Shown: piece by piece, positions 49,525 to 57,497 of the stretch
How the letters are laid out: the number at the start of each line of letters is the position of its first letter
Position numbering within the stretch: position 1 is the first letter of the stretch
Source: a virus
IMG/VR virus record: IMGVR_UViG_3300020451_000152
Coordinates: 1-64,000 of that record
DNA length: 64,000 bases
Reading direction: 5' to 3' (one strand)
Program-made: the position numbers and the translations under genes
Notes under the pieces: model-generated
What the model was told of the DNA's origin: nothing
Databases searched by the model: none
What the model saw: only the letters and a program-made list of their open reading frames with translations

Positions 49525-49665
49525 GTAATTACTCTCCTACAAGTTCATTTAGTACTCGCAATACATCTTCACCAGTTTTACACTCATAGAAGAATGATTC
49601 AATGTCGATGTTAGCGAAAGGAACAGATTGTGCGAACATGATAATAAAATGAAACAACAAAAAAA

Positions 49666-49739
49666 CTGGACTTACACTCAATGATTGTTGGCAATGCTAA
49701 CTCCTTTGCGAAGTCTAATTATGCCCCATTGGATGCCAG
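49666..49739 (-). ncRNA. Candidate 74-nt structured RNA (helix-UAAGU bulge-helix; possibly abiF-like motif)
   Basis: Nested pairings CUGG/CCAG, CAAUG/CAUUG, GGCA/UGCC, GACUUC/GGAGUU, then a U8 tract; family assignment from memory only. Confidence 0.6.
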
Positions 49740-49744
49740 AAGAG

Positions 49745-50062
49745 TTAGTTTAAACCTAACTCAAAACCATTTACGAAATCTTCAGTAAGGTTCTTGTAAC
49801 CTACGAACCACTCAAATTGCTTTTGAAATACTCTAGCACCATAAGAAAACTCATCTAATAGTGCATTGAGTCTAGACTTAGTGGTGACTGACTGCCAACC
49901 GCCATCGAATAAAAGAATCGAATTGTCTTTAACTGTAGCAATGTGGTTACCATGAAGATAGATCATTGAACCAGTCTCATCAGATTTTACCATAGTGTTG
50001 GATGATGAGAAGTTAGAACGGTTTCTAACTGCTGAATTCATTTGTCTTTCGATCTTTCTCAT
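49745..50062 (-). CDS. Conserved hypothetical early protein
   Basis: LHGNHIA...GGWQSVTTKSRLNAL...VFQKQFEWFV; behind motif promoter. Confidence 0.8.
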   Translation of the reverse strand: MRKIERQMNSAVRNRSNFSSSNTMVKSDETGSMIYLHGNHIATVKDNSILLFDGGWQSVTTKSRLNALLDEFSYGARVFQKQFEWFVGYKNLTEDFVNGFELGLN

Positions 50063-55188: not shown

Positions 55189-56361
55189 TTATCGGGTTAC
55201 AGTTGATATTGCTGGTAACCCTTGATTGAAAATAGTATCAACAACTGCTTCAACTTTTCTTGCAGTGCTAATACCAACTTTTGAATAAACTGGTACACAT
55301 ACCATACCATAGACCTTATCAGCATTGCCTGTACGGATAACTCTACCTATTGTTTGACTGATACCTATGTAATCCATAGATCTCATAAACAACACTGCTT
55401 CAAGTCCATTGACATTGATACCTTCTGATAGTATGCTATGATGCAATACAACAAACTTTGTATTGTCAGCACCCCATGTATTCAATGTTTTAAAGAATAC
55501 ATCACGAGATACTTTCTTACCATTGATGACTGCACCAGTTTTGGATGTAATATACATCCAAGAATAACCTCTATTTGATAACTCAATACAAAAATCTGAT
55601 TGAGATACTAATTGAGTAATTTGTTTTGTAGATTTAGCACATATTAGTACTTTATCTTTTTCTAAATTATCAATTGCCTCTAGCATATTGTCAGATTCTA
55701 CCTCTGCATAGATCTCATCTTTTTTCATTAGATCTCTTTTGTATACTTCAACTTTTGGTGGTAGAATGTAACCCTGCTCAACTAATTGAGGTGCTGGTAC
55801 ATTACAAATAACATCACCAAAAATATCAGTGTCATTCATACCTATTTTGAATGGACTCAAACTATGCTTAGGTGTAGCAGTAAAGAAGTATGATCTCTTA
55901 GCATATATTGAAAGATGCTCAACTGCTTCAATAAAGTTTTTTTGTACACTATTGTGTGCTTCATCAAAGTATATTGTATCAACTTCAATATCAAGTGATT
56001 CAGATACTCTATGCAATGAATGATATGTTGTGAATATCAATAGATTATTTCTGCTATTGTTATACCAGTGCTCCAATTCATCAGTTTTTGTTGTACTATT
56101 ATACTTTGTATCACCACTATGTACATGAATAACTTCTGCATCAATAAACTGTAGAAATTCTTCACATAATTGATGTGCTAATAGTATACGAGGTGCAACA
56201 ACTACTACAGTATGTGCAAACTTCTCATTTCTAGCAAATAGTCTTTTAGTATCTTCAATCATACACATTGTTTTACCACCACCTGTAGGAATGATAACCT
56301 TACCTTTAGGTGTGTTTGACATTGAGTCTAGAGCGTCAATTTGATGTGGTCTTAGTTGCAT
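55189..56361 (-). CDS. Superfamily-2 DEAH helicase (type III restriction Res-like)
   Basis: LRPHQ, PTGGGKT, FDEAH, TATP, LSEGIN, QTIGRVIR. Confidence 0.9.
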   Translation of the reverse strand: MQLRPHQIDALDSMSNTPKGKVIIPTGGGKTMCMIEDTKRLFARNEKFAHTVVVVAPRILLAHQLCEEFLQFIDAEVIHVHSGDTKYNSTTKTDELEHWYNNSRNNLLIFTTYHSLHRVSESLDIEVDTIYFDEAHNSVQKNFIEAVEHLSIYAKRSYFFTATPKHSLSPFKIGMNDTDIFGDVICNVPAPQLVEQGYILPPKVEVYKRDLMKKDEIYAEVESDNMLEAIDNLEKDKVLICAKSTKQITQLVSQSDFCIELSNRGYSWMYITSKTGAVINGKKVSRDVFFKTLNTWGADNTKFVVLHHSILSEGINVNGLEAVLFMRSMDYIGISQTIGRVIRTGNADKVYGMVCVPVYSKVGISTARKVEAVVDTIFNQGLPAISTVTR

Positions 56362-56381: not shown

Positions 56382-56438
56382 ATTATAGCATAAAAAAAGA
56401 CCCCCGAAGGGGTCTTGTGACAGTTATTTGATTGCCAC
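56382..56438 (-). promoter_or_regulatory. Palindromic-motif early promoter, copy 6 (terminator in spacer)
   Basis: GTGGCAA-N8-CTGTCAC then TATAAT. Confidence 0.7.
56392..56416 (-). terminator. Rho-independent terminator with cUUCGg tetraloop
   Basis: AAGACCCC-TTCG-GGGGTCTT followed by T tract. Confidence 0.9.
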
Positions 56439-56723
56439 TCTCTCTGGAACTTTAACATCTAGATTTTGTAGGAAATTAACTACAAATGCTTCCAGATAGA
56501 TCAAAGGGAGTATAACAAAATCAATACCTCTAAGTTTTGTGAATTTAGAGTAATCAACTGTTTTAACTTCTTCATTGACATTTAGTGTCAATGTTTCTGC
56601 TTTAACTTCTTCAGTCACAATTGGTTTAGCAACTGGAGTATTTAGAGTTTTAGTAACAGTTGTTTTACGAGTGCGTCTTTTGCGAGGAGTTGTAACTTTC
56701 TTCGCTGTAGATGCAGTTGGCAT
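56424..56723 (-). CDS. Hypothetical protein with basic N-terminus and hydrophobic C-terminal segment
   Basis: ORF track 56424..56738; start MPTAS at 56723. Confidence 0.7.
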   Translation of the reverse strand: MPTASTAKKVTTPRKRRTRKTTVTKTLNTPVAKPIVTEEVKAETLTLNVNEEVKTVDYSKFTKLRGIDFVILPLIYLEAFVVNFLQNLDVKVPERVAIK

Positions 56724-56745
56724 AGAATAATAATGCAATGGATGG

Positions 56746-57101
56746 GCGAAACATTAAGGGTAATGTAATTTTAATTCAACATCATGTCTCTACTTCTTGT
56801 TTGAGAGGAGTGGGGCAATGATCTGGGTTTCACCCAGTTGCCCAAATTTACCTACTGGGAATCGCTTACACCTGTACCCCCAAACTTAATCGGGGCAGTA
56901 GAACCACATATCCAAATGGGACTTACAACTTCAAAACTGTCTTTTCAGATGTCCGAGGACATCAGCAGTACTAGAGGTCTCCAAACATAAAGAGCAGTTA
57001 TCCACAGCGTGATCAAAGATCATCTGAATTGTTGCTCACCCCTGCCTAGCGTTTGCCCATTCTCAAAACTGTTAGAGTAGTTGAACCCTTAACTGTTTCG
57101 C
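56746..57101 (-). ncRNA. Candidate ~356-nt multi-domain structured RNA
   Basis: Starts ~7 nt after TATAAT; the two ends form a 16-bp helix; many internal helices; no minus-strand ORF in the track. Confidence 0.75.
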
Positions 57102-57107
57102 TCTTCT

Positions 57108-57165
57108 ATTATAACGCATCTAGGTCACTGTGCAATCGTCGTTGTGACACTTTATCAACTGGTTC
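57108..57165 (-). promoter_or_regulatory. Palindromic-motif early promoter, copy 7 (drives the structured RNA)
   Basis: GAACCAG-N8-GTGTCAC then TATAAT. Confidence 0.7.
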
Positions 57166-57285
57166 TTCAATGAATGTTCTTTCTTTACCATCTTCAGTGA
57201 GAATAACCCTAGATCTTTCTGTACTACCTGCCTCCCTTACATATATTGTAATGCCACCATCGGGTGATTCATAAATTTTTGGCAT
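57109..57285 (-). CDS. Small hypothetical protein (58 aa)
   Basis: Manual ORF MPKIYESPDGGITIYVREAG...; TAATG coupling. Confidence 0.7.
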   Translation of the reverse strand: MPKIYESPDGGITIYVREAGSTERSRVILTEDGKERTFIEEPVDKVSQRRLHSDLDAL

Positions 57286-57497
57286 TAGTAAAACCTCGGT
57301 GCAGTTGGATAATTTCTTAATTCTAATTCAATTTCATCAAATATTCTATTGAGTGATCTTGCATAATCTCTATATGCACTACCAACATAAATTTGACCTG
57401 CTACAACTGAAAATGTAGCAATGCCCCAGAATAGATAGTAAAATTTACTTTTTACTTGTGCTCTTAGTTTTTCTTTAACTTGCATGATTGTCTCCAT
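57285..57497 (-). CDS. Small membrane protein
   Basis: One TM helix; preceded by TTTACA-N17-TATAAT. Confidence 0.7.
   Translation of the reverse strand: METIMQVKEKLRAQVKSKFYYLFWGIATFSVVAGQIYVGSAYRDYARSLNRIFDEIELELRNYPTAPRFY

Follow-up and report, generated by a model that had tools for sequence, protein, structure and literature searches.

A composite structured RNA of 356 nt, in which three independently conserved modules are nested, is encoded on the minus strand of the virus record IMGVR_UViG_3300020451_000152, within the 64,000-nt stretch analyzed here and referred to as the window (64 kb out of a 74-kb IMG/VR contig). The source is a T4-like, Prochlorococcus-type cyanomyovirus whose nearest cultured relatives are Prochlorococcus phages. 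The paired ends of the RNA belong to a frame, termed O, which surrounds two further modules, termed A and B. These modules are independent, phage-restricted units, present in single copy where counted (A and B), that this phage has fused into one transcript segment; among relatives they recur separately, are conserved with compensatory changes, and occur nested or chained. A, B, and O are undescribed RNA families, absent from Rfam 15 and unusual in their nested arrangement. That the element is a real, functional, modular structured RNA is very probable.

Three modules in one RNA

The initial annotation, made from the sequence alone, had proposed a structured, non-coding RNA on the minus strand that is richer in G+C than its surroundings. 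Each of these points is borne out. The G+C content is 43.3%, compared with 33.1% and 31.6% in the flanks, and the minimum free energy of the fold is -105.7 kcal/mol (z = -2.6), a value reached by 0 of 100 shuffled sequences. All helices listed in that annotation were found, and they are kept by compensatory changes in relatives. The longest open reading frame (ORF) on the sense strand spans only 30 aa; a protein-coding gene was rejected because this frame carries 1-3-nt indels in relatives and the substitutions are compensatory rather than synonymous. The terminal helix is formed by GCGAAACAGUUAAGGGU (57101-57085) and ACCCUUAAUGUUUCGC (56761-56746), which pair over 16 bp with one bulged G, and the stalk goes on inward through UCAAC/GUUGA, CUCUA/UAGAG, and UUUGAGA/UCUCAAA. 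Inside lie the helices AUGGG/CCCAU, GAGCA/UGCUC, UGAUC/GAUCA, GAUGUC/GACAUC, CUACUG/CAGUAG, and CCCC/GGGG, as well as a GGGCAA/UUGCCC helix that encloses a CUGGGU-GAA-ACCCAG hairpin. Several G·U pairs are invariant (columns 33-84 and 66-74 of B; columns 19-103 and 24-98 of A) and would turn into A·C in the complement; it is therefore the transcribed minus strand that folds.

What required revision is the idea of a single RNA of about 356 nt, given that the genuine structure consists of modules that are separate or rearranged elsewhere. A blastn comparison with phage records matched P-SSM2 and P-SSM5 over no more than the 3' third of the RNA, while a single-cell viral contig contained both inner parts in reversed order. 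From these partial and reordered matches, the RNA was recognized as a composite.

Module B (~110 nt) comprises a split P1, P1b (GUGG/CCAC), P2 (CUACUG/CAGUAG) around the P3 hairpin and an invariant GGUGUAAGCGAUUCC hairpin, the joining strand GUAAAUUU, and P4 (GGGCAA/UUGCCC) with a GUGAAAC hairpin. Its signature, GGTGTAAGCGATTCCC, was retrieved from >117 viral contigs in IMG/VR, which is a lower bound. Across 28 distinct simple copies, the 34 predicted pairs are 97.9% canonical, against at most 54.5% when the partner strand is slid; 14 pairs have changed on both sides, and the covariation seen is matched by 0 of 500 shuffles. About 50 positions are invariant, including the GGUGUAAGCGAUUCC hairpin, the GUAAAUUU joining strand, and the GUGAAAC loop. 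The P3 hairpin is a hot-spot for insertion, being replaced by other modules in many relatives, with a GAA/AGUA internal loop flanking the site. At this junction (L013, L022, L114, L035, and others) the internal loop takes the conserved form CCC-GAA ... AGUA-GGGG, which appears to resemble a loop-E/sarcin-ricin-type motif. A pattern scan of 185,579 prokaryote species, with one genome per species, yielded one cellular match to B. This sole copy, L168 (CAZRCY010000231.1, 1896 bp), is binned to a Candidatus Poseidoniales archaeon metagenome-assembled genome and is most likely a mis-binned cyanophage fragment.

Module A (~145 nt) is built from P1 (AUGGG/CCCAU), P2 (GCUAGG/UCUAGU), P3 (GAGCA/UGCUC) with an inner hairpin, and a variable P4 hairpin, which are linked by invariant joining strands. 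Of 49 contigs with the signature GGCAGGGGTGAGCAAC, five are unrelated GC-rich chance matches, leaving 44 true IMG/VR loci. With the structure set by hand for the pair statistics, 33 pairs are 89.7% canonical versus at most 54.9% in the slid arrangement, 15 are changed on both sides, and 0 of 500 shuffles reach the observed value. P1 varies completely between copies (UGGG/CCCA, GUGGAG/CUCCAC, GAGGG/CCCUC, and others), and the core strands are invariant. Among the invariant elements is UGCUCUUUA at 56988-56996 (minus strand), inside a proposed invariant stem; a divergent subtype of A (L143, L017) keeps this site as CUCUUUA.

The frame O is likewise conserved in its own right. Its signature AAGAAGYAGAGACATGAYG was found in 57 IMG/VR loci, and among 23 distinct complete frames its 26 pairs are 98% canonical, with compensatory changes at nine. 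The terminal helix itself covaries, from GCG/CGC to GAG/CUC or GUG/CAC, and from UUAAGGG/CCCUUAA to UUGAGGG/CCCUCAA or UUACGGG/CCCGUAA. The 3' strand of O carries, in addition to its helical parts (UAGAG, GUUGA, and the terminal helix strand), a CAAGAAG loop, an ACAUGAU bulge, and a 14-nt A/U-rich loop. The covariation that the initial annotation had looked for among homologues is thus present in all three modules.

The spacing between the strands of O reveals what the frame holds: it amounts to 72 nt without cargo and otherwise to ~99, ~153, ~197, 249, or 301 nt, where ~153 nt corresponds to B only (L092), ~197 nt to A only (L166), and 301 nt to A plus B. Among 24 O frames, the window is the only A-plus-B case. 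A 7-bp stem at the apex of O opens into a junction in which A and B stand side by side. This stem, UUUGAGA/UCUCAAA, is B's own P1 in relatives where O holds B; in the window, A interrupts that P1 between its GAGA and GGA halves, and because A splits the helix, the alignment to the B covariance model (R1) marks the two outermost P1 pairs as unmatched. A and B occur together in only 12 fetched loci, usually as B followed by A. Covariance models for B (R1) and A (R2) each detect one copy in the window. The complete 252-kb genome of P-SSM2 contains one B and no A, P-SSM5 contains no A, and three large contigs (G001-G003) contain one B each and either zero or one A, which in G003 lies ~108 kb from B.

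Several otherwise different modules share a closing frame, UGGGCA... / ...GUAAGUCCCA, to which GUGUAAGCGAUUCCCA in B is related (L092:3821-3905, L001:2431-2490, window 56919-56927). The GUAAG(U/C) element that recurs toward the 3' side of the stem closing them is possibly a shared recognition or tertiary motif.

Comparison with known RNA classes

Searches of Rfam 15 covered, among other families, riboswitches, ribozymes, group I/II introns, RNase P, 6S, Y RNA, manA, wcaG, PhotoRC, GOLLD, and ROOL. At the gathering score, no match was obtained in the whole window or in 18 related loci (144 kb in total), and relaxing the threshold to E values up to 10 for positions 56600-57250 gave only three chance-level matches of 12-15 bits. 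ARAGORN found no tRNA or transfer-messenger RNA (tmRNA) gene in the window. The initial annotation had likewise been unable to match the element to tRNA, tmRNA, RNase P, or intron signatures, in line with these searches, and the novelty of the element with respect to Rfam stands. The signature 14-16-mers were not found in the literature searched, although a 2023 catalogue of >10,000 viral candidate RNAs (PMC10690425) may list them. Likewise, nothing describing the modules was found in the literature on cyanophage structured RNAs, early promoters, and ocean small RNAs.

The closest known RNAs are the manA (RF01745), wcaG (RF01761), and PhotoRC-II (RF01717) motifs, orphan covariation-supported RNAs of unproven function that occur almost exclusively in marine metagenomes and T4-like cyanophages, in positions resembling 5' untranslated regions (PMC2864571). 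A, B, and O are likewise orphan structured RNAs supported by covariation. They differ in that manA, wcaG, and PhotoRC-II are tied to gene classes, whereas the present modules are free of gene class, nested, and swapped; there is also no sequence or structure match. GOLLD and ROOL, phage and prophage RNAs with their own Rfam families, are single folds of 500-800 nt that are often located near tRNA genes. The composite shares with them the character of a large, ornate, phage-borne RNA with a conserved core and variable parts. Unlike GOLLD and ROOL, it measures 356 nt, is put together from three small autonomous modules, and lies at the 5' end of a transcript, in a window without a tRNA gene. The small, stable T4 RNAs rnaC and rnaD (species 1 and 2; 139 and 119 nt) are comparable to the modules in length and in having no known function. 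In contrast to the modules, rnaC and rnaD belong to a tRNA cluster and possess a tRNA-like 3' end. A relationship was rejected: with filters off, R1 had only chance-level matches in the T4 tRNA region, the best of which (E = 0.07) fell outside rnaC/rnaD, and the sole match within them scored 4.2 bits (E = 4.9).

For the genomic setting, the closest parallel is offered by the PeSL cassettes of T4-type phages, found in hyperplastic early regions where units of promoter, small ORF, and terminator are shuffled among related phages (PMC2839356, PMC4122927). The modules occupy a similarly shuffled region of such units. PeSLs, however, are short promoter-plus-terminator DNA motifs with many repeats per genome (PMC2839356, PMC4122927), as opposed to single-copy RNAs of 110-145 nt with multi-helix junctions and covariation at the RNA level. 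A further explanation would be an element that is selfish or works at the DNA level (recombination cassette, primer region of a replication origin, or mobile repeat), with an incidental RNA fold. The mosaic distribution and nesting of the modules and the position of the locus in a shuffled early region near a helicase gene fit such an element, and in T4-type phages, cassettes of promoter and terminator are known agents of shuffling (PMC2839356, PMC4122927). Yet A and B are single-copy per genome, and the compensatory changes together with the strand-specific G·U pairs signify selection on a folded RNA strand. A replication origin was also considered and rejected, as no GC-skew switch was found at the locus. 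The covariation already disfavors a DNA-level element, which we regard as extremely improbable.

Locus, downstream genes, and expression

The features of the locus are collected in Table 1.

Table 1. Features of the composite RNA and its transcription unit (window coordinates)
Feature	Position	Strand	Details
Composite RNA, frame O around modules A and B	56746-57101	minus	356 nt
-10 hexamer TATAAT, presumed early promoter	57108-57113	minus	start predicted at ~57101-57103
O 5' strand: terminal helix strand, UCAAC, CUCUA, ACAGU loop	57068-57101	minus	
Module A	56916-57060	minus	R2 match 56911-57068, 178.7 bits
Module B	56807-56914	minus	R1 match 56799-56919, 128.5 bits, E 6e-38
Payload stem, 3' strand UCUCAAA	56800-56806	minus	partner UUUGAGA 57061-57067
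O 3' strand	56746-56799	minus	covariation, signature AAGAAGYAGAGACATGAYG
Downstream ORF, 99 aa, same unit	56424-56723	minus	ATG 22 nt past RNA
Intrinsic terminator, 8-bp stem, UUCG loop, U-run	56397-56416	minus	ends transcription unit

Transcription from a minus-strand promoter, as the initial annotation had suggested, is supported in part. G57101 lies 7 nt downstream of the TATAAT hexamer, and a predicted start at or next to an early-type -10 element is seen here as well as in relatives, where the GTATAATAGAAGAGCGAAAC context around the hexamer is conserved (L166, L179, L195, L199). The site lacks a -35 element and was therefore missed by a scan for two-hexamer sigma-70 promoters. The promoter is accordingly presumed from the -10 hexamer, its conservation in relatives, and a repeated upstream element. 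At ~57120-57150 this element consists of a conserved AACTGGCACA, a G+C-rich hairpin, and TATAAT, i.e., a putative terminator followed by an early promoter. It borders small-ORF units, recurs at L001:2360-2430, L001:2855-2905, and L002:1820-1875, and agrees with a palindromic promoter element listed for the window in the initial annotation; it can be viewed as the probable cyanophage counterpart of the PeSL cassettes. The upstream neighbor, a 58-aa ORF, ends at 57109, and on the other side the next promoter follows directly after the terminator. The adjoining gene (55189-56361, minus strand) encodes a ResIII/DEAD-type helicase. In 74 of 204 loci, the modules have a helicase homologue on their own strand no more than 4 kb away, up- or downstream, and the locus is therefore part of a syntenic, shuffled early region.

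Of 214 RNA units in the fetched loci, 173 are followed within 700 nt by an ORF of 35 aa or more, and the first ORFs of these 173 units fall into 46 unrelated clusters. The largest (26 units) encodes an acidic peptide of ~40 aa resembling PSSM2_071; other large clusters correspond to DUF7717, DUF6267, and PHROG families of unknown function, and cluster representatives matched only DUFs and PHROGs without assigned function. An Arg-rich family, to which the 99-aa protein of the window belongs, is encoded behind the RNAs in 19 units, which represent six different combinations of modules. At its N terminus the protein has a conserved Arg-rich motif (TPRKRRTRK), which is followed by a disordered linker of variable sequence and a C-terminal helix that is hydrophobic and conserved; it matched no Pfam or PHROG family and has 104 relatives (clusters), solely from marine metagenomes. 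In an AF2 model (pLDDT 61), most of the chain is disordered and a single C-terminal helix is formed. When loci were instead chosen by this protein, A, B, or O was present upstream in only ~15 of 66, a count in which other, unmodelled module types were not searched. With 46 clusters behind the modules and so few protein loci having them, a dedicated leader of the Arg-rich ORF was rejected. The suggestion of a very large leader for 56424-56723, also raised in the initial annotation, is weak as a gene-specific reading in view of the same diversity of downstream genes.

A more general cis-acting 5' leader would have the structured body shield the 5' end and tune the stability or translation of whichever small early ORF follows, with no function of its own. 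This explanation is unlikely, if a serious candidate. 5'-terminal stem-loops stabilize bacterial mRNAs; here the helix begins at or within a few nt of the predicted start, the ORF follows ~20-30 nt on, and a terminator appears only after the ORF, with none in between. On the other hand, a simple hairpin would suffice for such a purpose, yet ~50 positions of B, loops and junctions included, are invariant over >28 divergent copies. Such an RNA is moreover present at only one of ~9 early promoters in the window, the genes behind the modules are unrelated, and the ATG is not sequestered.

Also considered were new riboswitch aptamers that would respond to a host metabolite and thereby control the expression of early genes. 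The multi-helix junctions with invariant joining strands look aptamer-like, some relatives have a U-run right after the module closing stem, and cyanophages carry the riboswitch-like motifs glnA, manA, and wcaG (PMC2864571). An expression platform is lacking at the locus, however: neither a terminator or U-run between the terminal helix and the ORF, nor an anti-terminator, nor pairing with the start region was found, and the ATG, 22 nt past the last pair, is unpaired. One candidate switch in B, an alternative pairing of GGGCA with an upstream UGCCC, was rejected since it is lost where P4 covaries (L026, L033, L070). Given that the downstream genes are functionally unrelated and differ between phages, and that the locus shows no expression platform, neither a dedicated leader nor a riboswitch tied to one gene is likely, and we consider the riboswitch explanation as a whole improbable.

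The small Arg-rich protein brings to mind processive antitermination of the lambda nut/N or HK022 put type, in which the nascent RNA, perhaps helped by the protein, would alter RNA polymerase and let it pass the terminators of the early region. Lambda nutL-N and HK022 put lie directly behind an early promoter, as the composite does, and the succession from early promoter through structured RNA and a small, disordered, Arg-rich protein to a terminator parallels pL-nutL-N-tL1. The recurrence of the Arg-rich family behind six module combinations adds to this resemblance, as does the UGCUCUUUA element of A, which is identical to the opening nine bases of rrn boxA from E. coli. That nonamer is nevertheless expected ~0.9 times per window by chance and is situated in an invariant stem. 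The cyanobacterial boxA, GAACCUUGAAAA, was absent from the RNA at up to two mismatches. The modules are also two to five times larger than nut and put, the protein and the RNA co-occur unreliably (~15 of 66 loci), and the next gene has its own promoter. Antitermination thus appears quite improbable. The layout with the Arg-rich protein recalls lambda N, but the coupling of protein and RNA appears facultative, and the protein may instead act in trans.

Hints of expression come from public RNA libraries, in which parts of the stretch were found in 14 runs from several studies, as assembled contigs rather than reads. In one marine metatranscriptome (X1), error-free contigs tile 56578-57480, and the depth of the unitig spanning the A/B junction specific to the window is 28, compared with 3.5-4.4 for the downstream ORF and 9 for the upstream ORF, which is only a hint of expression. 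Three additional runs (X2-X4) contain short or related parts only. Contigs of two runs from one study end at 56743-56746, where the stalk has its 3' end, and those of a third run continue past this point; such contig ends and the uncovered parts of the flanks are no evidence of RNA ends. The contig ends could be taken to favor self-processing, either by new self-cleaving ribozyme modules or with O acting as a nuclease processing stalk, as in T7 early RNAs and pre-rRNA, that frees a payload or trims the mRNA. The paired 5' and 3' ends do form a long interrupted duplex of the type used by RNase III, and the cores are highly conserved. Against this, contig ends do not mark RNA ends and the third run reads through, no known ribozyme class in Rfam 15 matches, and the minimal O is nearly cargo-free yet retains its own invariant loops. 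Self-processing is in our estimation decidedly improbable.

Elsewhere in the window, a second, different module of the same general kind lies at 49665-49741 (minus strand) and reads CUGGCAUCCAAUGGGG ... CAUUGAGUGUAAGUCCAG followed by seven U. Located inside a transcript rather than at its start, it sits between a 105-aa ORF (49745-50062, minus strand) and a 36-aa acidic ORF (49529-49639, minus strand) related to PSSM2_071. Among the fetched loci, eight relatives carry compensatory changes that preserve its closing stem; taken alone, the fold is not better than shuffles (z = -1.35).

Possible roles early in infection

Our favored reading, held tentatively, is that of a nuclease-protected, multi-domain RNA made early, whose modules each dock or decoy a conserved host or phage factor. 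Three features speak for it. The 5' end is buried in the terminal helix, and resistance to 5'-end-dependent decay would therefore be expected. Each module retains many invariant unpaired bases, from which we infer specific tertiary folds or binding surfaces. Finally, the modules recombine freely, and each unit therefore probably works alone. According to this reading, the RNA would be made in the first minutes of infection and, with its 5' end hidden, would resist host RNases that depend on access to that end. It would act through itself and not through the gene behind it: O would serve as a display stalk, and A and B as separate docking sites or decoys for conserved factors, which may be proteins or possibly small ligands. 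The RNA may also stabilize the short mRNA that it heads.

Several observations weigh against this reading. Wherever the modules were found, they lie in a unit with a small ORF and never form a stand-alone gene with its own terminator, which leaves room for a role in cis. Their conservation may stem partly from the recent horizontal spread of cassettes and not from binding constraints, and the elevated depth in the metatranscriptome may be inflated by conserved sequence collapsed from many phage variants or by DNA carry-over. A bolder version, possible but on balance doubtful, regards the modules as a mix-and-match kit of new RNA domains, either aptamer-like decoys of host factors or new ribozyme or riboswitch classes, mounted on the O stalk at the head of the first transcripts. 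If true, such a kit would parallel, in RNA, the arsenals of anti-host proteins that phages shuffle so rapidly.

A considerable fraction of marine Prochlorococcus and Synechococcus is killed by T4-like cyanophages, whose earliest transcripts are almost wholly unexplained. The three RNA families described here have covariation support on par with that of many accepted Rfam families and are present in marine metatranscriptomes. The 356-nt copy is large enough for cryo-electron microscopy, and for B a cultured system exists in P-SSM2 or P-SSM5 on Prochlorococcus NATL1A/NATL2A, which makes the question testable. Should each module dock a host factor or represent a new ribozyme or aptamer, these RNAs would add a new layer to the biology of phage takeover and provide new RNA folds.

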